This document shows, piece by piece, positions 14,673 through 36,413 of a stretch of DNA of 64,000 nucleotides (positions are counted from its first letter, which is position 1; each line of letters opens with the position of its first letter). The translations under genes were made by a program, and so were the position numbers. Source of the stretch: Ottowia sp. (GTDB taxonomy: Bacteria; Pseudomonadota; Gammaproteobacteria; Burkholderiales; Burkholderiaceae_C); assembly GCF_046348305.1 (NCBI RefSeq), contig NZ_JAXMEM010000012.1, positions 35,618 through 99,617 of the forward strand, in the 5' to 3' direction. The notes beneath the pieces are model-generated. The model did no database searches and had not been told where the DNA came from. It was given only the letters and a program-made list of their open reading frames with translations.

Positions 14673-16985
14673 ATGAGCAAACCCCTGAGCCCCGCCGAGG
14701 CTGCGCTGCGCGATGCGGCGCGTGAATACCACCGCAGTCCCACGCGCGGCAAGATTTCCGTCACGCCGACCAAGCCGCTGGCCAACCAGCTCGATCTGTC
14801 GCTGGCCTATTCGCCCGGCGTGGCCTATCCGTGCCTGGACATCCAGGCCGATCCGAGCAAAGCCGCCGAATACACCTCGCGCGGCAACCTGGTGGGCGTC
14901 ATCACCAACGGCACGGCCGTGCTGGGCCTGGGCAACATCGGCGCGCTGGCGGGCAAGCCGGTGATGGAGGGCAAGGGGTGCCTCTTCAAGAAGTTCGCCG
15001 GCATCGACGTGTTCGACATCGAGCTGGACGAGCACGACCCCGACAAGCTGGTGGACATCATTGCCGCGCTGGAGCCCACGCTGGGCGGCGTCAATCTGGA
15101 GGACATCAAGGCGCCCGAGTGCTTCTATATCGAGAAGAAGCTGCGCGAGCGCATGAACATCCCCGTGTTCCACGACGACCAGCACGGCACGGCCATCATC
15201 TCGTCGGCGGCGCTGCTCAACGGCCTGGAGCTGGTGGGCAAGAAGATCGGCGACGTCAAGGTAGCCGTGAGCGGCGCGGGCGCCGCCGCCATCGCCTGTC
15301 TGGACGTGATGGTGGCCTTGGGCGTCAAGCCGGCCAACGTGCACGCCTGCGACTCCAAGGGCCTGATCTACGCCGGCCGCGCCAGCGTGGACGCCTCCAA
15401 GGCGCGCTACGCGCAGCCCGACACCGGCGCGCGCACCTTGGCCGACGTGGTCAAGGGGGCCGACGTGTTTCTGGGCTGCTCGGCCGCCGGCGTGCTGACG
15501 CAAGAGATGGTGAAAACCATGGCCGACAAGCCCATCATCCTGGCGCTGGCCAACCCCGAGCCCGAGATCCGCCCCGAGGACGCCAAGGCCGCGCGGCCCG
15601 ACTGCATCATCGCCACCGGGCGCAGCGACTACCCCAACCAGGTCAACAACGTCCTGTGCTTTCCCTACATCTTCCGCGGCGCGCTGGACTGCGGCGCCAG
15701 CAAGATCACCGAGGAGATGAAGCTGGCCTGCGTGCGCGAGATCGCCGCCCTGGCCAAGGCCGAGACCAGCGCCGAGGTGGCCACCGCCTACGCCGGCAAG
15801 GAGCTGCACTTCGGCCCCGACTACATCATCCCCACGCCGTTTGATCCGCGCCTGATCCTGCGCATCGCCCCGGCAGTGGCCGAGGCGGCGGCCAAGTCGG
15901 GCGTGGCCGAGCGCCCCATTGCCGACCTGGAGGCCTATCGCACGCAGCTGACGCGCTTCATCTACCAGACCGGCATGGTGATGCAGCCGGTGCTGACGGC
16001 GGCGCGCGCGGCCGATGCGGCGCACAAGCGCGTGGCCTACGCCGAGGGCGAGGACGAGCGCGTGCTGCACGCCGCGCAGGTGGTGGTGGACGACAAGCTG
16101 GCGCGCCCCATCCTGATCGGCCGCCCGGCCGTGATCGAGCAGCGCATCCACAAGGCCGGGCTGCGCATCCGCCTGGGCGTGGACGTGGACAACGTCAACC
16201 CCGAGGAGGATTCGCGCTTTCGCCAGTACTGGGAGACCTACCACCACCTGATGGGGCGCAACGGCGTCAGCGTCGAGGCCGCCAAGGCCACGGTGCGCCG
16301 CTCCAACACCGTCATTGCCGCGCTGATGGTGCACCTGGGCGATGCCGACGCCATGCTGTGCGGCACCGTGGGGCGCTACCACGCGCACCTGGACAACATC
16401 CGCGACATCATCGGCGTCGAGCCCGGCGCGCCCGACCTGGCCGCGCTCAACGCCATCATGCTGCACGAGCGCACGCTGTTCATCTGCGACACCTACGTGC
16501 ACGAAGACCCCAGCGCCGAGCTGCTGGCCGGCATCGCCAGGATGGCCGCCACCGAGGTGCACAACTTCGGCCTGCCGCCCAAGGTGGCGTTTTTGTCGCA
16601 CTCCAATTTCGGCTCGTCCAAGGACGCCTCGGCGCTCAAGGTGCGCCGCGCGCGCGACCTGTTCCGCGCGCTGGCCCCCGATGTCGAATGCGACGGCGAA
16701 ATGCACGGCGACAGCGCCCTGTCGGCCAAGCTGCGCGCTGCCACCATGCCCGACAGCACCCTGAGCGGCGAGGCCAACCTGCTGGTGTGCCCCAACCTGG
16801 ACGCGGCCAACATCCTGTTCAACGTGCTCAAGACCGTGGCCGGCAGCGGCGTCACCATTGGCCCCATGCTGCTGGGCGCGGCCGCGCCGGCGCACGTGCT
16901 CACGCCCTCGTCCACCGTGCGCCGGCTGGTCAACATGACCGCGCTGGCGGTCGATGAGGCACAGGTGCGCCGGCGCAACCGGTGA
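14673..16985 (+). CDS. maeB: NADP-dependent malic enzyme with phosphotransacetylase-like C-terminal domain
   Basis: [60 protein letters not shown]. Confidence 0.96.
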
Positions 16986-16995
16986 TCTGTCGGAT

Positions 16996-17058
16996 GCTCT
17001 GATATCAATAGCTGCGCGCGCCCATCACAAGGGCACAAGCAGCCATTTCGACGTTCAA
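16996..17058. repeat. Repeat family A, diverged intergenic copy
   Basis: TCAATAGCTGCGCGCGCCC...GGGCAC...TTCAA between converging maeB and yceI-like genes. Confidence 0.6.
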
Positions 17059-17062
17059 GCGC

Positions 17063-17638
17063 TCACTGTCTGAACGCCTCGATGGTGGCCGTGATGCGCA
17101 CGTTCTTGGGCATGCCCGCGTCCACCAGATAGTTCATGCCCCATTGGGTGCGGTCGATCACCGCCTCGAAGTCGCCGCCGCAGGCCTCGGTCCTGGCGCG
17201 CTTGTTGGGGTAGCACTTGAATTGATTGGCCTTGAGCGTGACCGGCAGCGTGCGTCCCAGCAGCGTGAGCTGGCCGGGCACCTCGACGAGGCGCTCGCCG
17301 TCGAACACCAGCCGGTCCGAGACGAAGCGCATGGTCGGGTATTGGCGCGCGTCGAACAGATCGGGCGAGAGCAGATGCTCGTCAAAGCCCCGGGAGCCGC
17401 TGTAGACGCTGGCCACCTGCACGAACAGGTCGATGGCGCCCGCCTTGGCCACGGGGTCGAAGCGCACCGAGCCCGCCACCTCGTCAAAGCGCGCGCGGTT
17501 GACCGAGGCGCCAAAGTGGTCGATGGCGAAGGTGGCGTAGGTGTGATCGGCGTCCAGGGCATAGCGCGCCGGCTCGGCATGGGCCGCGCCAAAAACCAGC
17601 CAGGCCAGGCCGAGAAAGGTGGACAAATGTTTGCGCAT
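17063..17638 (-). CDS. YceI-family periplasmic lipid/isoprenoid-binding protein
   Basis: Signal peptide; YALDADHT, HLLSPDLFDARQYPTMRF, IDRTQWG. Confidence 0.9.
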   Translation of the reverse strand: MRKHLSTFLGLAWLVFGAAHAEPARYALDADHTYATFAIDHFGASVNRARFDEVAGSVRFDPVAKAGAIDLFVQVASVYSGSRGFDEHLLSPDLFDARQYPTMRFVSDRLVFDGERLVEVPGQLTLLGRTLPVTLKANQFKCYPNKRARTEACGGDFEAVIDRTQWGMNYLVDAGMPKNVRITATIEAFRQ

Positions 17639-17780
17639 GGGTCATCCTCCAAAGACAATGCCAATCGGCTCAGTATGGCGGCGCAGCCGTCCGCAAGCCT
17701 TGACCTGAGGCAGCTTCCCCGCCTTTGCCGGCCAGCAGTCAAGGCCGCAACCGGATCACCATAGGACCCTCATCGACCCC

Positions 17781-20462
17781 ATGAGCATCCGCAACCTCGA
17801 CTCGCTGTTCCATCCGCAATCGGTGGCGATCATCGGCGCCTCCGAGCGGCCGTTTTCGGCCGGCGCCGCGCTGTGGCGCAACATGCACGCCAGCGGCTTC
17901 CAGGGCGCGCTCTGGCCGCTCAACCCCAAATACGAGCAGCTGGCCGGCCAGCGCTGCTATGCCCGCGTGCGCGATCTGCCCGGCGTGCCGGAGCTGGCCG
18001 TGATCTGCACCCCGCCCGCCACGGTGGACGATCTGATCCGGCAACTGGCCCAGGCCGGCACCAAGGCCGCCGTGGTCATCAGCGCCGGCCTCACGCCCGA
18101 GCAGAAGCAGGCCATGCTGGACGCCGCGCGCCCCCGGCTGCTGCGCATCCTGGGGCCCGACTGCGTGGGCCTGCTGGCGCCGCACGCGCACCTGAACGCC
18201 AGCATCGCGCCCGCCGCGGCCCAGCCGGGCCAACTGGCCCTGGTCTCGCAGTCCGACGCGCTGGTCACCGCCATGCTGGACTGGGCGCAGGCGCGCAGCA
18301 TCGGTTTTTCGCACTTTGTCGCACTGGGCGAGCACGCCGACGTGGACGCTGCCGACGTGCTGGACTACCTGGCCAGCGACGCGCACACGCGCGCCATCCT
18401 GCTGTGCATCGAATCGATCGAGCACGCGCGCAAGTTCATGTCGGCCGCGCGCGCGGCGGCGCGCAACAAGCCGGTCATCGTGCTCAAGGCCGGGCGCAGC
18501 GCGCCGGGACAACAGGCCGCCGCCTCGCACACCGGCGCGCTGGCCGGCGCCGATGCCGTGCATGAAGCGGCCATTGCCCGCGCCGGCATGCTGCGCGTGG
18601 ACAGCCTGGAGCAGCTCTTTCTGGCCGCCGAAATTCTCACCCGCTTCAAGGCGCCCGTCGGCGCGCACCTGAGCATCCTCACCAACGCCGGCGGCGCCGG
18701 CGTGCTGGCCGCCGACGCGGCGGCGGCGCATGGCCTGCGCCTGGCCGATCCGGGCGCTGCGCTGCGCGGCGAGCTGGCCGCGGTGCTGCCGCTCCGCAGC
18801 CCCCTCGGCAACCCGGTGACCCTCGCCGCCGACGCGCCCGCGCCGTGCTACGCGGACGCGCTGCGGGCGCTGGCACGCCACCCCGAGGACAGCGGCACGC
18901 TGCTGTTCATCCATGCGCCCACCGCCATCGTGCCGGCCGCCGACATCGCGCGCGCCATGATTCCCGTCGCCCACCCTGCGCAGCAGCACGCGCTGCCCCT
19001 GGTGGCGGCGTGGATGGGGGGCCCGGCCGTCGCCGAAGCGCGCCAGCTGTTCATGCAGGCCGGCACCGCCTGCTACGACATGCCCGAGCAGGCGGTGGCC
19101 GCCATCGGCATGCTGCACGACTACGCGCGCAACCAGGCCGAGCTGACCGAAGCGCCACCGGCCGCACCACCGGGCCAGCCCGCGCCCGACACCGCCGCCG
19201 TGCGCCGCCTGGTCGCCACCGCGCTGGCCGAGGGGCGATCGTGGTTGAGCGAGCCCGAGTCCAAGGCCGTGTGCGCGGCCTACGGCATCCCCGTGGTGGC
19301 CACCCACCGGGTCGCCCCCGAGCCCGAAGCCGCCGCCGACGAGGCGGCGCGCATCGGCTTTCCGGTGGTGCTCAAGATCGTGTCGGCCGACGTCACGCAC
19401 AAGTCGGACGTGGGTGGCGTGGCGCTCAACCTGCAGGACGCCCAGGACGTGCGCACCGCTGCGCAGACCATGCTCGCGCGCATCGCCAAGACCCACCCGC
19501 AGGCGCGGCTGGAGGGCTTTGCCGTGCAGGCCATGGTGCGCAAGCCGCAGGCGCAGGAGCTGATCGTCGGCGCCAGCATCGACCCCGGCTTCGGCCCCGT
19601 GATCCTGTTCGGCCAGGGCGGCACGGCCGTCGAGGTGCTCAGGGACAGCGCCATGGCGCTGCCGCCGCTGAACGCCCCGCTGGCGCGCGCACTGATCGAG
19701 CGCACCCGCGTGGCGCGCCTGCTGGCCGGCTGGCGCGACGTGCCCCCGGCCGACCTGGACGCCGTCATCGCGACGCTGATGGCCGTGTCCCAGCTGCTCG
19801 CCGACGTGCCCGAGCTGGCCGAGCTGGACATCAACCCGCTGCTGGTGGACCACGCCGGCGCCATTGCGCTGGACGCGCGCGTGGGCCTGAGCGCCGCGCA
19901 ACCCGCGGGCGCCCGCCACTTCGCCATCGCGCCCTATCCGGCCGATCTCATCGAGACGGTGCAGTGGCAAGGCCGCACGCTCACGCTGCGCCCGGTGCGC
20001 CCCGAGGACGAAGCGCAGCACCGCGCCTTTCTGGAAAGCCTGGATCCCGGCGACATCCGCCTGCGCCTGTTCTACACCCGCCGCTACATGGAGCGCAGCG
20101 AGCTGGCGCGCCTGGTGCAAATCGACTACACGCGCGAGATGGCCTTCATCGCCACCGCGCCCGACGAGAACGGCCGCGAGCAAACCCTGGGTGTGGCCCG
20201 CGCCAGCGCCGACCCGGACAACCAGGGCGCCGAGTTCGGCATCATCCTGCGCCACGGCTTGAAGGGCGCGGGCCTGGGCCGTCGGCTGATGGACAAGCTG
20301 ATCGGCCACTTCCGCGCCGCCGGCACGCGCGAGATGACCGCCGTGGTGCTCAAGGAAAACCGCGCCATGCGCGAGCTGGGCCACGCGCTGGGCTTTTCCG
20401 ACCAGCCCTCGCCGGACGACCCCGACATCCGGCTGCTGACGCTGGAGTTGCAGGCGCCCTGA
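17781..20462 (+). CDS. Acyl-CoA synthetase (NDP-forming)-like / ATP-grasp / GNAT fusion (Pat/PatZ-type protein lysine acetyltransferase)
   Basis: PQSVAIIGAS, ILGPDCVG, SHTGALAG, PVVLKIVSADVTHKSDVGG, ELDINPL, C-terminal GNAT (GAGLGRRL). Confidence 0.9.
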   Translation: MSIRNLDSLFHPQSVAIIGASERPFSAGAALWRNMHASGFQGALWPLNPKYEQLAGQRCYARVRDLPGVPELAVICTPPATVDDLIRQLAQAGTKAAVVISAGLTPEQKQAMLDAARPRLLRILGPDCVGLLAPHAHLNASIAPAAAQPGQLALVSQSDALVTAMLDWAQARSIGFSHFVALGEHADVDAADVLDYLASDAHTRAILLCIESIEHARKFMSAARAAARNKPVIVLKAGRSAPGQQAAASHTGALAGADAVHEAAIARAGMLRVDSLEQLFLAAEILTRFKAPVGAHLSILTNAGGAGVLAADAAAAHGLRLADPGAALRGELAAVLPLRSPLGNPVTLAADAPAPCYADALRALARHPEDSGTLLFIHAPTAIVPAADIARAMIPVAHPAQQHALPLVAAWMGGPAVAEARQLFMQAGTACYDMPEQAVAAIGMLHDYARNQAELTEAPPAAPPGQPAPDTAAVRRLVATALAEGRSWLSEPESKAVCAAYGIPVVATHRVAPEPEAAADEAARIGFPVVLKIVSADVTHKSDVGGVALNLQDAQDVRTAAQTMLARIAKTHPQARLEGFAVQAMVRKPQAQELIVGASIDPGFGPVILFGQGGTAVEVLRDSAMALPPLNAPLARALIERTRVARLLAGWRDVPPADLDAVIATLMAVSQLLADVPELAELDINPLLVDHAGAIALDARVGLSAAQPAGARHFAIAPYPADLIETVQWQGRTLTLRPVRPEDEAQHRAFLESLDPGDIRLRLFYTRRYMERSELARLVQIDYTREMAFIATAPDENGREQTLGVARASADPDNQGAEFGIILRHGLKGAGLGRRLMDKLIGHFRAAGTREMTAVVLKENRAMRELGHALGFSDQPSPDDPDIRLLTLELQAP

Positions 20463-20488
20463 CGCTGCGCGCGGGGAACCGAAACTCC

Positions 20489-20596
20489 AACAGCCGGACG
20501 CAGAGGACGCAAAAAATTCCATTCATGAGGACCGGATCCAGATTGAAGTTTTCTGCGCCTTTTGCGAAACCTTTGCGTCCTCTGCGTCCGGCTGTT
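20489..20596. repeat. 108-bp element with perfect 25-bp terminal inverted repeats (family B)
   Basis: AACAGCCGGACGCAGAGGACGCAAA (20489-20513) / TTTGCGTCCTCTGCGTCCGGCTGTT (20572-20596). Confidence 0.85.
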
Positions 20597-20623
20597 CATG
20601 GTTTTTATCGGCCCCCGGTAAAT

Positions 20624-20682
20624 TACAAGCGGTTTCAGTCGCTCGCGCCCATCCCGTGCGTGCAAGCAGCTATCATTTTTGA
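20624..20682. repeat. Repeat family A, intergenic copy abutting a start codon
   Basis: ...GTGCAAGCAGCTATCATTTTTGA immediately before ATG 20683. Confidence 0.7.
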
Positions 20683-21915
20683 ATGAACCCTTCCATGTTT
20701 CCGCGCGCCGCGCTGCTGGCCTTGTGCGCCGCCTGGGCGCTGCCCGGCGCGGCGCAGGACGCGCCCGCGCCCAGCCTCGACCCCGCCGAATTCAAGACCT
20801 GCCTGAGCCAGCTGCAGGGTACGCCGGCGTTTCGCGCCATCACGGCGCAGACCTTTGCCGAGCAGACCCGCACGCTCGCACCCGACCCCTCGGTGCTGGT
20901 GCTGCTCAATCGCCAGCCCGAGTTCACCATGCCGGTGTGGGACTACATGGCCGTGCTGGACGACGCCGAGCGCGTGCAGGACGGGCGGGCGGCCTTTGCC
21001 AAGTGGCAGGATGTGCTGCAAAAGATCGAGGCGCAGACGGGCGTGCCCGCCGCCATCATCACCGGCGTATGGGGCGTGGAGAGCAATTTCGGCCAGAACC
21101 TGGGCGGGCGCCCGCTGGTGCAGTCGCTGGCCACGCTGTCGTGCTTCGGGCGCCGGCAGGCCTACTTTCGCGGCGAGTTCGCGGCGGCGCTGCGCATCAT
21201 CCAGGAGGGCCACATCGCGCCCGACAAGCTGACCGGCTCCTGGGCCGGCGCGTTCGGGCAGACGCAGTTCATGCCCAGCACCTTTTTTGCCAACGCGGTG
21301 GACTTCGACGGTGACGGGCGGCGCGACATCGTGGACAGCGTGCCCGACGCGCTGGCCTCGACCGCCAAATTCCTGCAAAACGCCGGCTGGCGGCGCGGCG
21401 AGCCCTGGGGCTTTGAAGTGCGCCTGCCCAAGGGCTTCGACAGCTCGGGCGCAAGCCGCAAGGCCAAGCAGCCCATCGCCACCTGGCAGCGCGCCGGCCT
21501 GACGCTGGCGGATGGCCAGCCCCTGCCGGGCGATCTGCCCAGCGCCGGCCTGATGATTCCGGCCGCCGGCGGCCCGGCCTTTCTGGTAGGGCGCAACTTC
21601 GACGCGCTGTACCGCTACAACGCCAGCGAGAACTACGCCCTGGCCATCGCCCACCTGGCCGACCTGATCGCCGACCCGCAGGCGCCCCTGGCCTTTGCCA
21701 CGCCCTGGCCCACGGACGATCCGGGCCTGTCGCGCGCCGAGAACCGCGAGCTGCAAACCCTGCTGCTGGCGCGTGGCCACGACATCGGCACGGCCGACGG
21801 CATGATCGGCGCCAAGACGCGCGAGGCCATCAAGGCCGAGCAGCAAAGGCTGGGCGTCAAGGCCGACGGGCGCGCCGGCCAGAAGCTGCTGGCCGCGCTC
21901 AGAAAAGCGGATTGA
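20683..21915 (+). CDS. Lytic murein transglycosylase (MltB/SltB-like) with C-terminal PG-binding domain
   Basis: Signal peptide; WGVESNFG, GSWAGAFGQTQFMPS, YNASENYA, DGMIGAKTR. Confidence 0.92.
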   Translation: MNPSMFPRAALLALCAAWALPGAAQDAPAPSLDPAEFKTCLSQLQGTPAFRAITAQTFAEQTRTLAPDPSVLVLLNRQPEFTMPVWDYMAVLDDAERVQDGRAAFAKWQDVLQKIEAQTGVPAAIITGVWGVESNFGQNLGGRPLVQSLATLSCFGRRQAYFRGEFAAALRIIQEGHIAPDKLTGSWAGAFGQTQFMPSTFFANAVDFDGDGRRDIVDSVPDALASTAKFLQNAGWRRGEPWGFEVRLPKGFDSSGASRKAKQPIATWQRAGLTLADGQPLPGDLPSAGLMIPAAGGPAFLVGRNFDALYRYNASENYALAIAHLADLIADPQAPLAFATPWPTDDPGLSRAENRELQTLLLARGHDIGTADGMIGAKTREAIKAEQQRLGVKADGRAGQKLLAALRKAD

Positions 21916-23829
21916 TCACGAAGTCGATTCGGCGGCCGCCGCACGCGGCGCATTGAGCACGAAGGCATCGGAGAAACACGCGCCCTCTTCCAGCCCGTGC
22001 GACAAAAAGGCGGGCACCGCCGTCTGCACCATCATGGTGGAGCCGCAGGCGTACAGCTCCTGCCCGCGCATGTCGGGAAAGTCCTCCAGCACCGCCTGGT
22101 GCACCAGGCCGCGGCGGCCCTCCCAGCCGTCGCCCGGCGCGCCATCGGACAGCACCGGGATGAAGCGGAAGTTGGCGTGCTCGCACTGCCAGGTTTCGGC
22201 CAGATCGCGCATGTACAGGTCGGACACCTGGCGCACGCCCCAGTACAGGCGCATGGGCCGCGTGATGCCGCGCGCAAAGGCGTCCTCGATGATGCTCTTG
22301 ACGGGCGCAAAGCCCGTGGCCCCCGCCAGAAAGACGATGGGGCGCTCGCCTTCGCGCAGCGTGAAGCGCCCCAGCGGCCCCTCCAGGCGCAGCGTGTCGC
22401 CCACCTGCATGCCGTCGAACACATGGCCGGTGAAGCGCCCGCCCGGGATGCGCCGCACGTGCAGGTCGATCAGCGGGCGCTGCATCGGCGGGTTGGCAAA
22501 CGAGAAGGCGCGGCGCTCGCCGTCCTCCAGGATCACGTTCAGGTACTGGCCGGCGATGAAGTCCAGCTTCAGGTCGGCCGGGGGTTGCAGCAACAGGCGC
22601 ATCACCTCGGGCGCCAGGCGTTCCATGCTGACCACGGTGGCGCTGAACTCTTGCTTGATCAGGGGCTCCAGGGTTTCGACCTCGATCTCCAGGTCCTCCA
22701 GCGGCACGGCACAGCACATCAGCGCCTGGCCGCGCTCGCGCATGGCCTCGGTCAGCGTGGCGGGCTGATACGGGCCGTGGTCGAACTTGCCGTTGAGCAC
22801 CGTGCACACGCACAGCCCGCAGCCGCCGGCGCGGCAGTCGTATTGCAGCGGCAGCTCGGCGCGCAGGCCGGCCTCCAGGATGGTCTCGCCGCGGCGCGCC
22901 GACACGTGGCGCGCATCGGGATGCACGGTCACGTTCAGGGTGCGGGCCGCGCCGCCCGCGCGCCGCCACACCAGCCAGGGTTGCACCAGCAGCAGGCCGG
23001 TCACGCCCAGCACCAGCGCCCAGGTCCAGGCCGGCCCCCAGGCGTGCACCAGCGGGTACAGGCCCAGCAGCAGCCAGTCGAGCTTGAGCTGGCTGGGCAC
23101 CACGGCCATGTGCGCGGGGCCGCCCTGGCTGACGACGGGCAGCACCAGCGCCAGCACCAGCAGCATCACGCCGGCACTGACGGCGATCGGCTTGGGCGGC
23201 TGCATGGCCGCCTTGGGCACGCGCTGCACGTGCACCCACATCAGCAGCAGCGTGAGCAGCGGCACGCCGATGTGGATGAACACCAGCAGCGAAAACAGGC
23301 GATCGCTCACGGTGCTGTCGTAGATGAAGTTGCGGATCAGCGAGCCGCGGAACAGCGGAATCCAGTCCAGCCACTCGAAGCTGGTGGTGGTGACGAACTG
23401 GGCGAGCTGGTCCCAGGGCAGCATGTAGCCGTTGGCGCCGGCGGCATACACCAGCCAGATCAGCGCCACGCCCGTGACCCACGAGAACGCACGGAAGCCG
23501 CGCAGCCGGTCGAACGCGAAGTAGCGCAGCATGTGGATCACCATGGTCACCACCATGGCGTCCGAGGCGTAGCGATGCACGCTGCGCACGATGCCGCCGA
23601 TGAACCACTGCCGGTGCGTGAGCCCCTCCACCGACTGGTAGGCCCCCGTCACGCTGGTGTCGAAGAAGGCAAACAGGTACAGGCCGGTGCCGGCGACGAT
23701 CCAGAACAGGAAGAAGGTCAGCGGACCCAGGTGGTAGTAGGGGTTCAGGCGGTCGCCGAAGGCGCGGTTGAAGACCGCCTCCACCCGCATGAAGCCCCAG
23801 CGCATCAGCGCCTGCAGCCGACCGATCAT
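21916..23829 (-). CDS. Diheme cytochrome b fused to [2Fe-2S] ferredoxin and FAD/NAD(P)-binding reductase
   Basis: HRYASDAMVVTMVIH and HIGVPLLTLLLMWVH His pairs (14 apart), GYMLPWDQ; CRAGGCGLC...C; RRAFSFAN, AGATGFAP, YACG. Confidence 0.85.
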   Translation of the reverse strand: MIGRLQALMRWGFMRVEAVFNRAFGDRLNPYYHLGPLTFFLFWIVAGTGLYLFAFFDTSVTGAYQSVEGLTHRQWFIGGIVRSVHRYASDAMVVTMVIHMLRYFAFDRLRGFRAFSWVTGVALIWLVYAAGANGYMLPWDQLAQFVTTTSFEWLDWIPLFRGSLIRNFIYDSTVSDRLFSLLVFIHIGVPLLTLLLMWVHVQRVPKAAMQPPKPIAVSAGVMLLVLALVLPVVSQGGPAHMAVVPSQLKLDWLLLGLYPLVHAWGPAWTWALVLGVTGLLLVQPWLVWRRAGGAARTLNVTVHPDARHVSARRGETILEAGLRAELPLQYDCRAGGCGLCVCTVLNGKFDHGPYQPATLTEAMRERGQALMCCAVPLEDLEIEVETLEPLIKQEFSATVVSMERLAPEVMRLLLQPPADLKLDFIAGQYLNVILEDGERRAFSFANPPMQRPLIDLHVRRIPGGRFTGHVFDGMQVGDTLRLEGPLGRFTLREGERPIVFLAGATGFAPVKSIIEDAFARGITRPMRLYWGVRQVSDLYMRDLAETWQCEHANFRFIPVLSDGAPGDGWEGRRGLVHQAVLEDFPDMRGQELYACGSTMMVQTAVPAFLSHGLEEGACFSDAFVLNAPRAAAAESTS

Positions 23830-25253
23830 GCCGGCACCTCCATGGACCGGGCCCGCATGGCGCGCAGCACCACGACGACGAACAGCAGGCCGCCGATCAC
23901 GGCCAGCAGCCCGCCCAGGCCCATCAGGCCCATGCCGGCCACCTCGGCCGTGCTGCGCAGCACCTGCTCGCTGCCGGCCACCTTGCGCTGCACGCCATAG
24001 CCGCCCGACCAAACCAGGCCGATGATGTGCATCAGCTGCCCCGCGCCATACAGCCAGGGCTGCCACACCGCCATGCGCCCGCGCGGCGCGCTCCAGCCCA
24101 GCGTGGGCAGCAGGTGATAGACGATGCCCATCAGCGCCAGCGTGACGCCCACGATGCAGCCGTGGTAGTGCGCCGGAATCTTGACGTTGCTGCCGCTGAT
24201 CAGCATGCCGATCACGCCGCCGCAGGCGAACAGCAGCATGGAGCTGACCAGCGCGCCCCACAGCGGCCTTTGCTCATCGCGCAGCCGGCGCAGCGGCGCC
24301 AGTGCCAGCACCACGGCCAGCGCGATGGGAAAGATCGCCAGCCCGCCCCCAACGCGCATGGCCCAGGTGTGCAATTGGCGGTTTTCCACGCTGACGGCGT
24401 CATACGCCACATAGGCGTAGGGCGTGATGAACACGCTGACCAGCGCCAGCATGAGCAGCAGCAAGGCGATGCGCGGGCTCAGCAGCACCCGCCCGCCGCA
24501 GGCATGGGCCAGCCACAGCCACACCACCAGCATCAGCAGCGTCCAGGCAAACTGCAAGGCGTGGCCACCGCCCCAGAAGAGGATCTCGTAATAGGTGCGC
24601 AAATCCATGCGGGTGGGCACCGCGGCAAACGACCAGGCAAAGGCCAGCAGCGCCACGGCCACGCACACCACGCTGGCACTCAACCCGAAGCGCAGCGCGC
24701 GCTCGCCGTCGATCACGCCGCCCAGGCGCGGGGCGGCCAGCAGGCTGCGCAGCACCTGCACGCCCAGGCCCAGGCCAAAGACGACCAGCCCGGCCAGGAA
24801 CAGCGGCCCGTGCAACACCGGGATGTAGTTGGCCATGATGGCCTCGCCCGGGCGGATGAAGGCGCCCAGCGCCATCAGCACCGTGCCGCTGCCGCACAGG
24901 CCCAGGGCGGCCCAACTCCAGCCGAGGCCGCGCTCGGTGGTGTTCAGGCTCCACAACATGCCCGCCATGGCGGCAAACCACACCAACACCGACAAATCCA
25001 CGTGCACCACCAGTGCCACGCGAAAAAAGTCGGCAACCGGAAACCACTGGTTGACGCCCGGCGTGCGCGCCAGCACCAGCAGCACCGAATAGAGGCCCGA
25101 GCCAGCCAGCGCCGCCAGCCCCAGCGCCAACCAGGCCCGCGCCAGCGCGCGCTGGGCGGTGGTGGGCTGCGGCAAGGTGTAGGCGGCAGGCTCTGCCGTG
25201 CGCGGCGCGTACAGCGCGTGGGGATCGAAAATGGCTTGTGCAGGGTGATTCAT
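23826..25253 (-). CDS. Heme-copper oxidase subunit I-like paralog with degenerate binuclear site
   Basis: ~12 TM; LVVHVDL, ILFWGGGHALQF, IPAHYHG; only one His (QLHTW) where the HH pair is expected. Confidence 0.75.
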   Translation of the reverse strand: MNHPAQAIFDPHALYAPRTAEPAAYTLPQPTTAQRALARAWLALGLAALAGSGLYSVLLVLARTPGVNQWFPVADFFRVALVVHVDLSVLVWFAAMAGMLWSLNTTERGLGWSWAALGLCGSGTVLMALGAFIRPGEAIMANYIPVLHGPLFLAGLVVFGLGLGVQVLRSLLAAPRLGGVIDGERALRFGLSASVVCVAVALLAFAWSFAAVPTRMDLRTYYEILFWGGGHALQFAWTLLMLVVWLWLAHACGGRVLLSPRIALLLLMLALVSVFITPYAYVAYDAVSVENRQLHTWAMRVGGGLAIFPIALAVVLALAPLRRLRDEQRPLWGALVSSMLLFACGGVIGMLISGSNVKIPAHYHGCIVGVTLALMGIVYHLLPTLGWSAPRGRMAVWQPWLYGAGQLMHIIGLVWSGGYGVQRKVAGSEQVLRSTAEVAGMGLMGLGGLLAVIGGLLFVVVVLRAMRARSMEVPA

Positions 25254-25336
25254 ATCAATCTTCCAGGGTGCTGCCAAGCGCCGGGGGCGCCGCAAACCCA
25301 AAGCGCCCATTGGCCGCCGAGCGGGCCATGACAGCG

Positions 25337-25406
25337 AACGCCGTGGCCGGACCTGCGCCGGCCACAGGCGTTGCCCCTCCTCCAGGCGCAGCGCCAGAGA
25401 GGAGGG
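25337..25406. repeat. Two GC-rich intergenic hairpins inside the respiratory cluster
   Basis: AACGCCGTGGCCGG/CCGGCCACAGGCGTT (25337-25372); CCCTCCTC/GAGGAGGG (25375-25406). Confidence 0.65.
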
Positions 25407-25436
25407 AAGGCGCGCAGCGACGCAGGGAGGTGTTCA

Positions 25437-25970
25437 TTAGAACGTGATGCCGCCCTTCTCGGCGTTGTAGTCGATCACCAGGACTTGATTGGGTTTGAGC
25501 GTCACCGTGTCCTCGAGCTGCGCCGTGAAACCCGGAGCGCGTGCGTCGTCCTTCATGCGAACGGCAATTTTTTGTTCCCCGGCCGGCACCTGGACCCGCC
25601 GATATACCGCGGAGGCGCCATCGCGCTTCAGGCCACTGGGCTCGGCCGTCTCTTGCAGCACGCGCCGGCCGTTGATGTCCACCTCGATGCTGACGGGCGA
25701 GCGCTCGCGCGGGCAAATCTGCTTGGGACGCATCTGCGGGGGCAGCTTGGCCTTTTCTTCCTCGGTCAGGGGGCGGCAGTCGCCCACCGGCTTGCCGGTG
25801 TGCGTGAAGCTGATCTTGATCAGCGCATCGCCCGGCGGCAGCGGGTGGTAGACGGGCCAGTGCGAGAACACGCCGATGAACACGGCAAACAAGACGTACA
25901 GCAGCGCCTGGCCCAGCCATGCCCCCACGGAAACGCGATGGCGCGAAGGATCGACGGTGGAGGCATTCAT
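25437..25970 (-). CDS. Membrane-anchored hypothetical protein, coupled to the cytochrome b-MvhD gene
   Basis: One N-terminal TM, two Cys (DCRP, QICPRERSP); ATG overlaps upstream stop. Confidence 0.7.
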   Translation of the reverse strand: MNASTVDPSRHRVSVGAWLGQALLYVLFAVFIGVFSHWPVYHPLPPGDALIKISFTHTGKPVGDCRPLTEEEKAKLPPQMRPKQICPRERSPVSIEVDINGRRVLQETAEPSGLKRDGASAVYRRVQVPAGEQKIAVRMKDDARAPGFTAQLEDTVTLKPNQVLVIDYNAEKGGITF

Positions 25971-27562
25971 GTGGACAACTCGAGGGCGGATGGGGTGCGC
26001 TCGCGCGCCGACTGCGGGCCGCGCCAACGATCGAGGATGGGTGCGATGGCATCGGCATCCCGCGCACCGGACCAGACCATGGCCCAGCGTTCGCGCGGCA
26101 CGGTGGGCCGCAGGCGGGGCTCGCGCACGCCGTGCAGGCGCTCGTGCAACAGCGTGGCGCCGTCGCGGAACGCGCAGTGGCCGGGCGCGCACGCCTGCAC
26201 GAGCACGCCGGCGGCGCCGTCGCGCAGCGCGTATTCGACGAAGGCGGGCGGCAACTGGCCGACGCACAGCAATTCGATGGCCACCACGTCGGGCGCCAGC
26301 AGGCAGGCCGGCGGCGGCACGTGGGCGCAGCGAAAGGCCACGATGGATCGGGCCGCGGGCGCAGCCTGCAGCCGCTGGCGCAACTGCTCGCGCAGTGTGT
26401 TGACCGGCAACTGCGGCATGTCGATGCCGCTTTGCAAATCGGCCACGCTGCGAAATGGCGTCGCCGATGGGCAGGCGCCGGCGCAGATGCCGCAGCGCGC
26501 GCAGCGCTCGGCATCGACCACGGCCAGCTCATGACCGGGCTTGCCGCTGGGGTGCGCGACCATGCCGATGGCGGCGTAGGGGCAGTCATCGACGCAGCGC
26601 CGGCAGCCGCTGCAATAGTCGGGATCGACCCGGGCCGCGGGCGCGTCCTCGCGGCGGTGCGGCATGAAGGGCAGCCACAGCAGACCGGCCAGGGCGCCAC
26701 CCAGCACAACCCAGGCGAGCCCGCCCGACAGCGCGTCGGCCATGGGGTGGACAAACAGCAGCAACCAGTCCAGCCGCAGCGCGGCGGGCACCCGGGTCAT
26801 GTCGGCCGCCGGACCGCTGACCACGGGCGTCACGGTGGCCAGCCCCACGAACATGGCCAGCAGACCCAGGGCCAGCGGCTGCGGCGGCACGACGCGCGCG
26901 CGCGGCAGGCGCTGGATGTGAAACCACAGTCCGAACGTCATCAGCAGCGCCACGCCCAGATGCACGAAGACGAACAGCGAGAACAGGCGGTCGCCCACCG
27001 TGTCCAGCGACAGGAAGTTGCGCGCCAGCGGCGTGGTCAGCCCCGGCAGGGCGTCCAGCCATTCGGCGGTGGCCAGGGCCGAGTACTGGCCCAGCTCGTC
27101 CCAATTGAGCCAGAAGCCGCCGATGCCGCAGACAAAGGCAAACACGATGAGCGGCACGCCGGTGAGCCAGCTGAAGCGGTGATGGGCGCGAAAGCGCCCA
27201 TGCAGCCATTCGCGCAACGCGTGCAGGCCCATCAGCAGCACGAAGGCATCGGCCGCGTAGCGATGCACGCTGCGCAGCCAGCCACCGTAGAACCAGGGCC
27301 ACGCGGCCAGGCGCTCGATCGAGGCGTGGGCGCCGGCGGCCGAGGTGTCGATGACGGCGTACAGGTAAATGCCGCTGGCCGCCAGCGTCCAGAAGCACAG
27401 AAAGGCCATGCTGCCCAGGTGATGCAGCGGATTGAGCGCCGGCCACGTCCAGCGGTCGATGCCGCGCTCGAGCGCTTGCCAGGCAGCCAGGGCGCGCCCT
27501 GGCGCTGCCGGAGCCCCGGCGCGGCGCGGCACCGGCGCGGGCAGGACAGCGGCGGCATTCAA
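25967..27562 (-). CDS. Diheme cytochrome b fused to 2x[4Fe-4S] ferredoxin and MvhD/FlpD-like domain
   Basis: TTG start overlapping SCO stop; HRYAADAFVLLMGLH, HLGVALLMTFGLWFH; CSGCRRCVDDCP, CARCGICAGACP; IVAFRC..LLCVGQ..GVLVQACAPGHCAF. Confidence 0.82.
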   Translation of the reverse strand: MNAAAVLPAPVPRRAGAPAAPGRALAAWQALERGIDRWTWPALNPLHHLGSMAFLCFWTLAASGIYLYAVIDTSAAGAHASIERLAAWPWFYGGWLRSVHRYAADAFVLLMGLHALREWLHGRFRAHHRFSWLTGVPLIVFAFVCGIGGFWLNWDELGQYSALATAEWLDALPGLTTPLARNFLSLDTVGDRLFSLFVFVHLGVALLMTFGLWFHIQRLPRARVVPPQPLALGLLAMFVGLATVTPVVSGPAADMTRVPAALRLDWLLLFVHPMADALSGGLAWVVLGGALAGLLWLPFMPHRREDAPAARVDPDYCSGCRRCVDDCPYAAIGMVAHPSGKPGHELAVVDAERCARCGICAGACPSATPFRSVADLQSGIDMPQLPVNTLREQLRQRLQAAPAARSIVAFRCAHVPPPACLLAPDVVAIELLCVGQLPPAFVEYALRDGAAGVLVQACAPGHCAFRDGATLLHERLHGVREPRLRPTVPRERWAMVWSGARDADAIAPILDRWRGPQSARERTPSALELST

Positions 27563-28455
27563 TGCAGGGCCTCCGCAGGCACCGGTGCGCTCCGGCGCAC
27601 TTGCCGGCGGGCGCGCCGATGGCGCCGCCATTCGAGCACGAAGTACCCGATCATCCACACGAAGAACACCATGCCGCCAACGATCTCCATCACCAGCGCG
27701 TACTTGAAGCGGTAGGTGCCGGTCTCCGGGTCGTATACGGTGCACAGGATGCGCACGCGTTCGAGCAGGCCGGCCAGCGTCTCGCGCTGGGTGACGGGCG
27801 CGCGGCCCAGCAGCTGGCGCAGTGGCTCGCCGAGCTGCTGCGCCGTCAGTTGGTCGCCCCAGACCTGGGTGGCGATCTTGCCCTCGGCATCCAGCACGGT
27901 GACGCCCAGGATGTGATCGAAGCCCGCCGGCGTGGCCAGGTAGCTGAAGCCGAAGCTGCGCGTGAGCGGCTCCACGATCTTGGCGTGCGGGCTGAGGAAC
28001 TCCCAGTTGGGGTACTTGATGCCGTACTGCGCGGCAAACGAGCGCAGCGCCACCGGCGAGTCGGCCGGCTGGTTGAAGCCGATGCTGACGACGTTGAACT
28101 GGCCCGGGCTGAGCAGCTGGTCCAGCCCCTTGACGGCTTCGTGCAGGTTGCGCGTGCTGGTGGGACAGATCTCGAAGCAGCCGGTGTAGATGAAGCTCAC
28201 CAGCAACGGCTTGCCCCGGTATTGGGACAGCCGCACCGGCTTGCCCTGGCGGTCGAGCAAGGTGAAGTCGGGCGGCGTCGTGCCGATCACGGCCTGGCCG
28301 GCGGCCAGCGCGGCGGTGGCGTCCAGGCGGGGCACGGTGCTGGCCACGGCGTCGTCCGCCTGCGCCCATCCGGCGGCGCCCAGCAGGGGGAGCACGCCTG
28401 CCAGCGTCCACAGCATGCGTTGCACACGCTGGGCCAGCCCGGTCACCGCTTTCAT
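27559..28455 (-). CDS. SCO-family copper chaperone with C-terminal TM extension
   Basis: YTGCFEICP CxxxC, conserved His in GFDHIL, thioredoxin fold. Confidence 0.88.
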   Translation of the reverse strand: MKAVTGLAQRVQRMLWTLAGVLPLLGAAGWAQADDAVASTVPRLDATAALAAGQAVIGTTPPDFTLLDRQGKPVRLSQYRGKPLLVSFIYTGCFEICPTSTRNLHEAVKGLDQLLSPGQFNVVSIGFNQPADSPVALRSFAAQYGIKYPNWEFLSPHAKIVEPLTRSFGFSYLATPAGFDHILGVTVLDAEGKIATQVWGDQLTAQQLGEPLRQLLGRAPVTQRETLAGLLERVRILCTVYDPETGTYRFKYALVMEIVGGMVFFVWMIGYFVLEWRRHRRARRQVRRSAPVPAEALH

Positions 28456-28513
28456 CCGCACGTTCAAGCTCCGAACCGCCACGGCCAGCGCCGCGGCGAT
28501 CAACGGGCCACGC

Positions 28514-30214
28514 TCAACTGAGGCCCCACAGGGTGGACAGGTACTTCCAGTTGATGAAGTAGTACAGCACGAAGGCCACCAGGAACACCATGGCCAGCAC
28601 GAAGGTGCCGGGGGCCGCAAAACCGGCCGAACCGGCGGTTTGCGCCACCACGGTGGGGGCGGTGCGCGGGATCGGCGTGAAGGTGGCGCGCTCGGCGCCG
28701 CGTTCGAGCTTCTTGCCCCACAACAGCGAACCGACGGTGACGTAAATGTAGATCGCGCCACCGGCAATTGCCGCCACGCCGCCGATGCCCACCAGGCCCA
28801 TCATCAGGTAGGCGGCGCCCGGCCATTCGTAGGCCAGCGGGTTGCCGCTGAAGGCCATGTCCCAGTGGCGACGCGACACGCCCAGGGTGCCGGCGCCCAT
28901 CATCACCAGGCAGAAGAAGTACATCGAGAAGCCGAAGATGTACGGTTGCCACTTGGCCAGCTTGGGCGCGATCATCTCGCGCTTGAACAGCACCGGGATC
29001 AGGTAATACGTCAGCGCCATGAAAGTCAGCGTGGTGCCCACGACGACGGTGGCGTGAAAGTGGCCCGGCACATAGATCGTGTTGTGGATAATCATGTTGA
29101 GCTGCTCGGTGCCCATCATCACGCCCGAGATGCCGCCCAGGAAGCCAAAGCCGATGATCGAGATGAACACGCCCGAGAACGTGGGGTTGCCCCAGGGCGC
29201 CTTGCGCAGCCACTCGAACAGGCCCTTGGTGAAGCCCTTTTGCCGCTGCGCCACTTCCATCGCGCCGGGCACCGTCAGGCCGTGCAGCATCGAGGCCAGC
29301 ACCGCGAAGTACATGAAGTAACTGGTGTTGACGATCTTCCAGGGCGTGGACAGGCCCGGGTCGGCCAGCAGGTGGTGTGCGCTGGCCAGCTGGAGGAACA
29401 AGATGTAGAGCAAAAACGCCGTGCGGCTGACGCGCTCGCTCATCGGCTTGGCGCCGAAGACGACCGCTGCCACCAGATACCACACCGAGATGTGCGCGGC
29501 CACGTTGATCTGCTGCGAGGAGTGTCCCAGCGCCCACCAGATGGTGCGGTAGGCCAGCGGATCGACCTGCTTGATCAGGCCGATGGACATCAGCCAGGTC
29601 GGGATCAGGATGATGGCGCCCGACAGCAGGGTGAACACCGCAATGATGGCCGCCGTGATGGCGCCCATGGTGACCAGCGGCACCGAGCCCTGATAGGTGC
29701 GGTCGCGCTTGGCGACGACCAGGGTGCCGAAGAACACGCCGCATCCGATCAGCGCGCCGACGGCGAACAGGATGATGGTCAGATAGAACCAGGACGAGGC
29801 CATCATGGGCACGTAGCTGGTCATCATGACGCTGGAGCTGCCCTGGAACACGACGATGTTGTTGCCCACCGAGCCGATCACCATCAGCGCAAAGGCCAGC
29901 CAGGCGAGCTTGGGTGTGGCAATGCGGCAGCGCAGCAAGGTGGAGGCGCAGAAGTACAGGATGGCGATCTCAAAGAAGATCAGCCAGAAGATCAGCATGT
30001 CCAGGCCATGGGCCGTGAGCACCATGTAGAAGGTGTCGGCCTCCAGCCAGTGCACCGCCGGCCAGCGCGTGAGCACCACGCCGATGGCCAGCAGGCCGCC
30101 GAAGGCCAAGAACAGCACGCCGGCGACGGCGTTCCACATGATGAGTTTTTCGGCCTGCGCTTCAAATTGCAGGCCCGATCGCGGGCAGGTGCGATAGGTG
30201 GTGGCTTGTCCCAT
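28514..30214 (-). CDS. Heme-copper oxidase superfamily subunit I, B-family-derived, eNOR-like (Gln at cross-link Tyr position)
   Basis: TAHG, WWALGHSSQQ, SAHHL, PGHFHAT: all six His present; H+4 residue is Q, not Y. Confidence 0.85.
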   Translation of the reverse strand: MGQATTYRTCPRSGLQFEAQAEKLIMWNAVAGVLFLAFGGLLAIGVVLTRWPAVHWLEADTFYMVLTAHGLDMLIFWLIFFEIAILYFCASTLLRCRIATPKLAWLAFALMVIGSVGNNIVVFQGSSSVMMTSYVPMMASSWFYLTIILFAVGALIGCGVFFGTLVVAKRDRTYQGSVPLVTMGAITAAIIAVFTLLSGAIILIPTWLMSIGLIKQVDPLAYRTIWWALGHSSQQINVAAHISVWYLVAAVVFGAKPMSERVSRTAFLLYILFLQLASAHHLLADPGLSTPWKIVNTSYFMYFAVLASMLHGLTVPGAMEVAQRQKGFTKGLFEWLRKAPWGNPTFSGVFISIIGFGFLGGISGVMMGTEQLNMIIHNTIYVPGHFHATVVVGTTLTFMALTYYLIPVLFKREMIAPKLAKWQPYIFGFSMYFFCLVMMGAGTLGVSRRHWDMAFSGNPLAYEWPGAAYLMMGLVGIGGVAAIAGGAIYIYVTVGSLLWGKKLERGAERATFTPIPRTAPTVVAQTAGSAGFAAPGTFVLAMVFLVAFVLYYFINWKYLSTLWGLS

Positions 30215-30224
30215 GGTGCGTCCC

Positions 30225-30767
30225 TCAGTCCTTGATGTACATGCGGCCCACCATGGTGTGGTGGCCAATTCCACAGAACTCGTTGCACACGATCGAGATC
30301 TGGCCCGACTGGTTGGGCGTGATGGTCAGCACGTGCTCGAAGCCCGGCACCAGCTGGATGTTGATGTTCTGCGGCTGCAGCGAGAAGCCGTGGTTGTAGT
30401 CCATGGCCGTCAGATGCAGGCGGTATTTCTCGCCCTTCTTCAGCTCCAGGATGGGCCAGAAGTTCCACAGCCGGCCCAGCATGTAGACGTCGCTGCCCGG
30501 CGGCGGGGCCACCACGGGCGTGTTTTGCTCGCCTTCGGTGCGCACCGTGTACTTGTCGACCACGGCCTGCGCCTTGGCCGTGAACTTCTCGGGCGTGGTG
30601 CGGTAGGTCTCGGTCGACAGGTTCTGGTTGCCCCAGACGTGCCAGCCGACCATCATGACGAACATGATCAGGCACCAGGTCAGCGACAGCACGATCCACG
30701 TGCCTTCGACCCGGTCGATGGGATGCTTGTACCAAAGCCGCTCGGGCGGCGGAAGAATGGCGCTCAT
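30225..30767 (-). CDS. Heme-copper oxidase subunit II with CuA site
   Basis: Single TM; DYNHGF and CNEFCGIGHHTM CuA motif; no CxxCH. Confidence 0.92.
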   Translation of the reverse strand: MSAILPPPERLWYKHPIDRVEGTWIVLSLTWCLIMFVMMVGWHVWGNQNLSTETYRTTPEKFTAKAQAVVDKYTVRTEGEQNTPVVAPPPGSDVYMLGRLWNFWPILELKKGEKYRLHLTAMDYNHGFSLQPQNINIQLVPGFEHVLTITPNQSGQISIVCNEFCGIGHHTMVGRMYIKD

Positions 30768-30807
30768 GGTGTGGAACCTCGGGGTGGAAAGGCGATCGGA
30801 CCGGGGC

Positions 30808-30972
30808 TTACTTGCCCAGGGGCAGCATCATGATTTCGACCACGCCCCACAGGTTGTAGACCAGCATGGGAATCAGCACGCCCAGGAACAGCAGGATGAA
30901 GGGGCTGTCCAGCAACTGCTGCATCCAGGGAATGGGTTCGTTGGGGTCGTTCAGGTCGTCTTTCTGGCTCAT
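30808..30972 (-). CDS. Small single-TM oxidase subunit (IIa-like, 54 aa)
   Basis: MSQKDDLNDPNEPIPWMQQLLDSPFILLFLGVLIPMLVYNLWG; first gene of operon; GGAGGG RBS. Confidence 0.7.
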   Translation of the reverse strand: MSQKDDLNDPNEPIPWMQQLLDSPFILLFLGVLIPMLVYNLWGVVEIMMLPLGK

Positions 30973-32521: not shown

Positions 32522-32567
32522 GACGATCCTCCAGGGGCGGGTTGAAAAACGGTGGGAATGACAGACG

Positions 32568-34151: not shown

Positions 34152-34175
34152 GGCTTGGTGTCCAGGGACTGGGGA

Positions 34176-35848: not shown

Positions 35849-35852
35849 GATG

Positions 35853-36341: not shown

Positions 36342-36413
36342 GGGGGCTCCGGGCCGAGGGGGGAGAGAGAAATGGCTGAATCTGCCTGCAATGTAGCAGC
36401 GCCATGCCCCGCG

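Follow-up and report, generated by a model that had tools for sequence, protein, structure and literature searches.

Among the haem-copper oxidoreductases (HCOs) that reduce nitric oxide (NO), eNOR is recognised by a Gln in place of the cross-linked Tyr (PMC8756737). Its characterised example, the enzyme of Rhodothermus marinus, is reported to have a modified haem a at both haem sites, and ctaA is reported from many eNOR operons (PMC11214002). In Ferrigenium straubiae the eNOR operon encodes, in this order, eNOR II, eNOR I, haem o synthase, Sco1, a cytochrome b (cyt b)-FeS-FAD-NADH protein, a hypothetical protein, a scaffold protein, PerM and a cyt b-FeS protein, a make-up that its authors call common; the 'eNOR scaffold protein' is described as being of unknown function and is annotated as COX subunit I (K02274) or hypothetical, IMG 2878407321 (bioRxiv 10.64898/2026.01.22.701106). 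Here we analyse a stretch of 64,000 nucleotides from an Ottowia sp. genome (contig NZ_JAXMEM010000012.1, positions 35,618 to 99,617; hereafter the window), and in it a minus-strand gene at 23826-25253 that encodes a second HCO subunit I (hereafter the paralog) next to that of an eNOR-type operon. Judged from its residues, the family to which this protein belongs appears to have kept two haem pockets and to have lost the binuclear metal site, the redox Tyr and the proton path, i.e., it is predicted to be CuB-less. The operon architecture matches that of F. straubiae, which differs by the PerM gene and by having ctaA located elsewhere, and the F. straubiae scaffold protein, which could be matched only through its annotation and its place in the operon, very probably corresponds to the paralog.

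Two further cases bear comparison. OccS of 'Ca. Dechloromonas occultata' (bioRxiv 10.1101/695007), compared here by its description only, is likewise an HCO subunit-I-like protein with three haem His and one CuB His that lacks the Tyr and, for the most part, HH along with the D and K channels; it differs in being part of a 19-gene multihaem cytochrome c cluster tied to Mn(III) reduction, with no eNOR or ctaA context. In gNOR one active-site His is changed to Asp, and the main survey of NO reductase diversity (2024) calls it the first HCO family to replace any, these His being fully conserved in all HCO families but gNOR; in the family described here two are changed, to a non-ligand or to Tyr. 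We found no mention of this family in term searches of that survey and, beyond OccS and the F. straubiae note, no CuB-less HCO homologue in the literature.

Fold and active-site residues of the paralog

The gene lies on the minus strand (not the plus), starts with an ATG at 25253 preceded by GGAAG and encodes 475 amino acids (aa), the length given in an initial annotation made from the sequence alone; close database homologues are likewise ca. 475 aa long. As the G+C content of the window is ca. 70%, long shadow open reading frames (ORFs) on the opposite strand are to be expected, and the minus-strand frame was taken as the gene on the basis of homology and codon-level selection. The only Pfam family that matched at E <= 0.01 was COX1 (PF00115; 51.5 bits, E 9.4e-14, residues 57-453, curated cut-off 34.8). 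There was no match to SURF1, the Pfam family that Surf1 proteins have of their own, and no NCBIfam model matched the paralog or two distant members of its family. A single-sequence search of the PDB returned no match either, so that a family profile was needed. The profile of 149 family members aligned end to end with subunit I of the Thermus ba3 oxidase (HMMER, E ~1e-19), and the AlphaFold2 (AF2) model built on the family alignment (predicted local distance difference test, pLDDT, 93.3; predicted template modelling score, pTM, 0.92) has 12 transmembrane (TM) helices and retrieved 41 HCO subunit I chains with Foldseek at E <= 1e-3, ba3 being the top hit (TM-score 0.73-0.75). The paralog thus has the fold of an HCO subunit I, far beyond chance. 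Subunit I of Thermus thermophilus ba3 (PDB 1EHK, 3S8F) is its closest solved structure by both profile and fold; it carries H282/H283, the cross-linked Y237 and a K-path and reduces O2, and none of these features is found in the paralog. Public annotation labels close homologues as cbb3-type oxidase subunit I (CcoN). We rejected this name, given that the CcoN equivalog model TIGR00780 is unmatched, that the HH pair, which CcoN has together with a helix VII Tyr, is absent, and that the nearest relatives by structure and sequence are of the B-family, not the C-family.

Residues were mapped from two independent alignments, i.e., the HMMER profile against ba3 and an hhalign comparison with the operon's own subunit I (probability 99.9%, E 4e-32), and conservation was scored on 123 family representatives, each 32-46% identical to the paralog, with 76 orthologues as a close set. 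H84 (codon 25004-25002) aligns to ba3 H72 and to the helix II His of the neighbouring subunit I and corresponds to the helix II haem ligand, H231 (24563-24561), in the motif FWGGGH, to the helix VI CuB His, H362-Y-H364 (H362/H364, 24170-24162) to the helix X HxH, and R423-K424 to the Arg pair that holds the haem propionates. The four His are retained in 120-123 of the 123 representatives (the predicted bis-His ligands of a low-spin haem, H84 and H364, and the presumed proximal His of a high-spin haem, H362, in 120-122) and R423-K424 in 118-119. Three features read by the initial annotation are borne out by both alignments, namely the helix II His, the WGGGH motif with Phe at the fourth position after the His (H+4), and HYH. 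Its view that a single His lies where the helix VII HH pair is expected did not hold: in both profile alignments the pair falls on A280/Y281 (24416-24411), and the His in question, H295 (24371-24369), sits 14-15 residues further on in a predicted helix (289-302, helix VIII), where it aligns to an Asn of subunit I. Across the representatives position 280 is hydrophobic and position 281 is Tyr (66), Phe (17) or His (11), while position 295 is Phe in 98 and Tyr in 20 (118 of 123) and is a His in just 32 of the 76 close orthologues. Both metal-binding His of helix VII are thus lost, not one, and this loss is conserved, as the initial annotation had proposed to check: a single representative of the 123 (P0247) has HH at the canonical position, which may mark a transitional stage in evolution or a reversion. 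The 'HH' strings seen in some other representatives were considered as candidates for the canonical pair and discarded, as they belong to a T-H-H-M in helix VIII.

The remainder of the binuclear centre is altered as well. Only H231 stays out of the three ligands of a CuB/FeB site, and F235 (H+4) occupies the position of the cross-linked Tyr (Phe in 97 representatives, Tyr in 11), so that the redox Tyr is absent together with the substitutes known from other families (Gln in eNOR, Glu in cNOR/qNOR); a Gln is found one residue earlier, at H+3 (Q234). By our reading of both alignments, the ba3 K-path positions Y244, Y248, S309 and T312 are Leu, Leu, Ile and Ala in the paralog. The near-invariant positions are H84, N142-Y143-x-P145, E223, F226, W227, G230, H231, Q234, T296, M299 (T296 and M299, 24368-24357), H362-Y363-H364 and R423-K424, and of these H231, Q234, T296 and M299, as placed by homology, probably lie near the former CuB pocket. 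The earlier proposal that the protein could bind two haems and no normal CuB/FeB agrees with this pattern, the haem axial His and R423-K424 being kept while a three-His site would be impossible. Accommodation of two haems would thus involve bis-His ligation of a low-spin haem by H84 and H364 and ligation of a high-spin haem by H362. The joint loss of the helix VII ligands, of the redox Tyr/Gln position and of a K-type path argues against a binuclear centre at which the paralog would reduce O2 or NO.

Such losses might suggest a decaying, functionless duplicate of subunit I. However, against the two closest orthologues the ratio of nonsynonymous to synonymous substitution rates (dN/dS) is 0.18-0.23, as compared to 0.02-0.08 for the main subunit I and 0.03-0.37 for the other five operon genes; the paralog is under purifying selection and shows no strain-level decay, and the relaxed selection that would have spoken against a remodelled active site was not seen. 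Moreover, the same residues are invariant at 32-46% identity, the AF2 model is confident, the apparent counterpart in F. straubiae was found as a protein, and homologues number in the thousands: an exhaustive search of representatives gave 1,502 clusters (50% identity) at E <= 1e-3 and 632 at E <= 1e-30, and the family occurs in at least 590 GTDB species (one genome scanned per species). We consider the decay reading hardly credible, and it is refuted by these conservation data. The best matches come from Burkholderiales, Dokdonella and metagenome-assembled genomes (MAGs) labelled Steroidobacteraceae, Nevskiaceae and Lysobacterales, and a second clade consists of alphaproteobacterial MAGs, some of them labelled Rickettsiales.

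Comparison with the operon's own eNOR subunit I (28514-30214), 22% identical, helps to place the family. Both proteins share the 12-TM fold, the helix II and helix VI His, the helix X HxH, the Arg/Lys pair, SYxP/NYxP, the Gln at H+3, a Thr 15-16 residues past the HH position and WQP, and neither has the redox Tyr. In contrast, eNOR subunit I has the helix VII HH, Gln at H+4, K-path-like residues and a CuA subunit II, and the paralog has Ala/Tyr at the HH position and Phe at H+4, with neither K-path residues nor a cupredoxin partner. The combination that defines an eNOR subunit I, i.e., a three-His site plus Gln at the Tyr position, is accordingly found in the neighbouring gene and not in the paralog. 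The Gln at H+3 that is common to eNOR-type subunits I and the paralog suggests that the CuB-less family arose from an eNOR-like ancestor, and descent from a B-family/eNOR-like HCO subunit I is the best explanation for the paralog.

Genomic neighbourhoods and a role in haem a supply

The operon is shared by the 80 closest species, where as a rule a haem O synthase gene separates subunit I from sco. Its variants have the cyt b-FNR gene ahead of that for p177 (a small membrane protein, see below), lack either the cyt b-Fer4 or the cyt b-FNR gene, or carry ctaA right after the paralog. A metagenome scan seeded with distant family members yielded 59 loci whose flanks reach 3 kb or more. Genes of the eNOR operon, or ctaA, ctaB or sco, occur in 53 of them, 44 being of the eNOR-operon type and nine having only ctaA, ctaB or sco nearby; the other six have none of these. 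In some of these loci the family gene is convergent with the operon or on the opposite strand from it. In alphaproteobacterial-type loci from several distinct lineages (L087-L090, L093, L094, L097, L098, L170), ctaA stands head-to-head with the family gene across a gap of ca. 90-190 bp, and at seven further loci of the family (L049, L079, L082, L119, L120, L133, L164) it follows directly downstream; ctaB or sco is present in most operons of the family. One member (P0224), encoded inside an eNOR-type operon of a lower-GC organism, continues at its C-terminus into a genuine haem O synthase (TIGR01473, 250 bits; cut-off, 210). TPR domains, typical of assembly factors, are found at the C-terminus of six representatives, one of them with a CcmH/CycH-type match.

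Taken together, these neighbourhoods suggest that the paralog helps to make or load haem a and does not itself reduce O2 or NO. What recurs across the lineages would be haem a, and not the cyt b modules, p177 or even eNOR, as seen in the ctaA adjacency in distant clades, the ctaB fusion, the place in an operon whose other genes are structural or serve assembly (sco, ctaB, ctaA), the TPR fusions and a sub-stoichiometric abundance. For the latter we rely on the F. straubiae proteome, in which eNOR I/II score 31.6, the scaffold protein 28.0, the cyt b fusions 26.2 and 23.9 and Sco1 24.7 (bioRxiv 10.64898/2026.01.22.701106), RNA depth being a weak measure. With haem a as the common denominator, we favour, at a rough probability of 0.4, the reading of the paralog as a CuB-less two-haem biogenesis factor in the supply or insertion of haem a for haem-a-containing HCOs. 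We postulate that it would work together with haem O synthase (CtaB) and haem A synthase (CtaA), take newly made haem o/a into its subunit-I-like pockets and then pass it on to nascent subunit I, i.e., it would be a paralogous scaffold in the sense of NifEN; in this window the client would be the eNOR encoded five genes upstream. The binding of haem o/a, the contact with CtaA/CtaB and the hand-over are all inferred. Known systems resemble the proposed action only, with no kinship in sequence or fold: Surf1/CbaX bring haem a from CtaA to subunit I (Surf1 having two TM helices), and NifEN, a catalytically dead nitrogenase paralog that serves as a cofactor scaffold, would be the analogue. The initial annotation had offered three functions, a heme-delivery or maturation scaffold, an electron wire or a new enzyme of the HCO fold, and it is the first that best fits the comparative context (ctaA adjacency, haem O synthase and TPR fusions).

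Several observations weigh against haem a supply or insertion. Some members are found in unrelated surroundings, i.e., after pntAB, between dnaN/recF and folE, or by thrS/infC and thrS/M16 peptidase. The gene travels with cyt b redox fusions in ca. 120 beta- and gammaproteobacterial loci, and in one protein (P0121), a single case that starts at a contig end, an N-terminal cyt b is fused directly to the HCO-like part; both point to electron transfer. The near-invariant H231, Q234, E223, T296 and M299, polar or ligand-type residues, resemble a catalytic or metal site more than a passive carrier. It is also hard to see by what mechanism a haem enclosed by 12 helices would be released, and ctaA adjacency would fit equally well a protein that merely needs haem a.

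Among the members in other surroundings, one is divergent from COX3, and in one alphaproteobacterial lineage (L091/L092) the family gene begins at the last base of pntB, which encodes a part of the proton-translocating transhydrogenase; judged by gene order, this junction would be a second, independent link to NADPH supply.

The eNOR-type operon

The paralog belongs to a seven-gene minus-strand operon of the eNOR type (30767 to 21916), which reads subunit II (CuA), subunit I, SCO1, cyt b-2x[4Fe-4S]-MvhD-like, p177, paralog and cyt b-[2Fe-2S]-FNR, with ctaA divergent upstream. Haem A synthase (ctaA/COX15; 31122-32066, plus strand) matches Pfam COX15-CtaA with 92.9 bits. Subunit II (30225-30767, minus strand, as are all that follow) shows a partial match to TIGR02866 CoxB and matches to NosZ CuA domains, and its CuA motif, read from the translation, is CNEFCGIGHHTM. 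The main subunit I (28514-30214; Pfam COX1, 208 bits) has GHSSQQ, which puts a Gln at the Tyr position, as well as HH, HFH and RR. None of these motifs varies among 65 orthologues, nor does the longer string GH-S-S-Q-Q-I-N-V, which is nearly identical (GHPSQQINV) in a distant lower-GC operon (L084). The presence of senC had prompted the label sNOR for this enzyme, which we dropped: the Gln at the Tyr position, the kept S309-equivalent and the matching F. straubiae operon point to eNOR. The SCO1/SenC copper chaperone follows at 27559-28455 (start approximate; Pfam SCO1-SenC, E 1.2e-13).

The operon carries two distinct two-haem cyt b fusions. The first (25967-27631, start codon uncertain between 27547 and 27631) joins cyt b to 2x[4Fe-4S] and an MvhD/FlpD-like part (Pfam Cytochrome_B, Fer4 families, FlpD), and the second (21916-23829) joins it to [2Fe-2S] and an FAD/NAD(P)H reductase (Pfam Cytochrome_B, Fer2, FAD_binding_6, NAD_binding_1; BenC-/NqrF-like partial matches). 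Both look like carriers of electrons across the membrane. In the second protein, two H-x13-H pairs and six hydrophobic segments, read from the sequence, would allow the FNR module to be in the cytoplasm and electrons to be exported in a NOX-like manner to the periplasmic side, which is the side of the HCO haems. The paralog is translationally coupled to this gene, as the initial annotation had recognised: the TGA of the former and the ATG of the latter overlap as ATGA (23829-23826).

This arrangement is the ground of the strongest rival to a role in haem a supply, one that we nevertheless consider unlikely, in which a second redox module, driven by NAD(P)H, would have the paralog as its acceptor or catalytic subunit. 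Electrons would pass from FNR/[2Fe-2S] and Fer4/MvhD to the two-haem cyt b, across the membrane and on to the low-spin haem of the paralog, where a remodelled pocket (H231, Q234, M299, Y281; haem-only or with another metal) would reduce NO or O2, or from where electrons would go to eNOR. The ATGA coupling speaks for it, as does the direct cyt b fusion of P0121. Practically every eNOR-type operon whose flanks are long enough (in the 80 species and the 44 metagenome loci) has one cyt b fusion or more, and the near-invariant H231, Q234, E223, T296 and M299 would be in keeping with a remodelled pocket. The proteome scores of F. straubiae place the apparent counterpart above Sco1 and above the two cyt b fusions, and that preprint, too, suspects a supercomplex and reads the cyt b-FNR protein as a quinol:NAD+ oxidoreductase. 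On the other hand, alphaproteobacterial-type members have no cyt b partner within 8-10 kb, operon variants do without the cyt b-FNR or the cyt b-Fer4 gene and shuffle the gene order, some loci have the family gene on the strand opposite the operon, the proton-path residues are all gone, and the P0121 fusion stands alone and begins at a contig end. Thus, the idea that the paralog is fed by the adjacent NAD(P)H module suits the local arrangement here and does not extend to those operons in which cyt b-FNR is absent or displaced, nor to the alphaproteobacterial members.

Alternatively, the paralog could be a redox partner of CtaA that relays electrons from quinol or from the cyt b-[2Fe-2S]-FNR protein. 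To our knowledge no bacterial electron donor of CtaA has been described, and yeast Cox15 needs Yah1/Arh1, with the Cox15 of Schizosaccharomyces pombe being fused to a ferredoxin; such a relay would be the bacterial parallel. The adjacency of ctaA counts for it to the same extent as for haem a supply or insertion, the [2Fe-2S]-FNR module is at hand in the operon, and the F. straubiae preprint raises the problem of haem A synthesis under near-anoxic denitrifying conditions. However, a relay needs neither a His-ligated high-spin pocket nor conserved distal residues, the alphaproteobacterial-type members have no FNR module nearby and a quinol site is unsupported, all of which makes this explanation quite improbable in our view.

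The abundance of the gene products bears on yet another explanation, that of a permanent structural subunit of eNOR, a pseudo-catalytic partner of the active subunit I. Most sampled loci indeed have the gene in the same operon as eNOR I/II, and in F. straubiae the apparent counterpart was detected as protein alongside eNOR. Its proteome score is, however, 3.6 units below that of eNOR I/II, which would be ca. 12-fold if the scale is log2. In contigs of wastewater and bioreactor metatranscriptomes the depth over subunits II/I (28359-30885) is ca. 5-100 times that of the downstream genes (21500-28358, i.e., sco, the cyt b fusions, p177 and the paralog), a weak hint that rests on assembled contigs only and in which reads of related strains and of DNA may inflate the conserved subunit I; for what it indicates, RNA depth of the paralog is far below that of the two subunits. 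Furthermore, many members have no eNOR within 8-10 kb, and term searches of the report on purified R. marinus eNOR gave no mention of such a subunit (PMC11214002). We regard a permanent subunit as very unlikely. A scan for promoters and terminators in the operon gave nothing decisive, and no convincing terminator was seen between subunit I and the downstream genes. Metatranscriptome contigs of two runs also have an insertion of three nucleotides (GCG) at window position 27548, near the junction of sco and the cyt b-Fer4 gene, that is probably strain variation.

The remaining member of the operon, p177 (25437-25970), is a single-pass membrane protein of an orphan family without a Pfam or NCBIfam match. 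A TM helix at the N-terminus is combined with an Ig-like beta-sandwich, and two Cys are conserved (AF2 pLDDT 89); its 956 homologues are all unnamed, and its gene is usually directly upstream of that of the paralog. The motifs C-P-R-E-R-S-P and G-L-x-x-D-G are invariant in the family, which has a much narrower distribution than that of the paralog. That p177 might be a subunit II in decay, or else a chaperone of the Cox11 kind, was considered and rejected, given an hhalign probability of 0.7% against subunit II and the empty Pfam and NCBIfam searches. Its AF2 model found no PDB match at E <= 1e-3, and no cupredoxin among the PDB matches, in keeping with a generic Ig-like sandwich. No cupredoxin or cytochrome c protein was thus found that could be a partner subunit II of the paralog, and the alphaproteobacterial-type members have no such neighbour.

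A spacer of 183 nt (25254-25436, minus strand) separates the p177 stop from the paralog start. It is peculiar to this genome, since L004 and L005, the two closest relatives, have the genes overlapping as CAATGA. At the p177 stop the ancestral ATGAAC persists here, and the ORF of 61 codons that it opens stops a single nucleotide short of the present ATG, so that the start codon and ribosome-binding site of the paralog look secondarily re-created. Both flanks of the operon consist of genes of ordinary metabolism: a malic enzyme-PTA fusion, YceI, an ADP-forming acyl-CoA synthetase-GNAT (Pat-like) protein and an SLT transglycosylase on one side (14673-21915), and a phasin, WS/DGAT, a PhaC-like hydrolase and a beta-lactamase-fold protein on the other (32081-37589). 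Unlike loci L001-L003, the window has no adjacent nirS.

Implications

The CuB-less family changes two active-site His where gNOR changes one, and it is large and under purifying selection. Given its size and the public naming of its members as a cbb3 subunit, it would be miscounted wherever metagenome surveys take COX1-like genes for oxidases or NO reductases. According to a 2022 review of oxidase assembly factors, whose list holds no COX1-like factor, it is not understood by what path haem A gets to subunit I (PMC9145763). We also entertain, as a possible though rather doubtful generalisation, that the family is an unrecognised large HCO branch that lost its catalytic metal site and now is a missing partner of CtaA, receiving haem o/a or feeding electrons to CtaA and loading oxidases and NO reductases. 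If true, this partner would range from sludge Burkholderiales to alphaproteobacterial MAGs labelled Rickettsiales by their sources, and it would help to answer how subunit I obtains its haem a. If the link to CtaA/CtaB is functional, the family would be a testable candidate for this loading step. It may also be relevant to the maturation of haem-a-dependent eNOR under near-anoxic denitrifying conditions, which matters for N2O production in wastewater and soils, the habitat of the source organism and its relatives.

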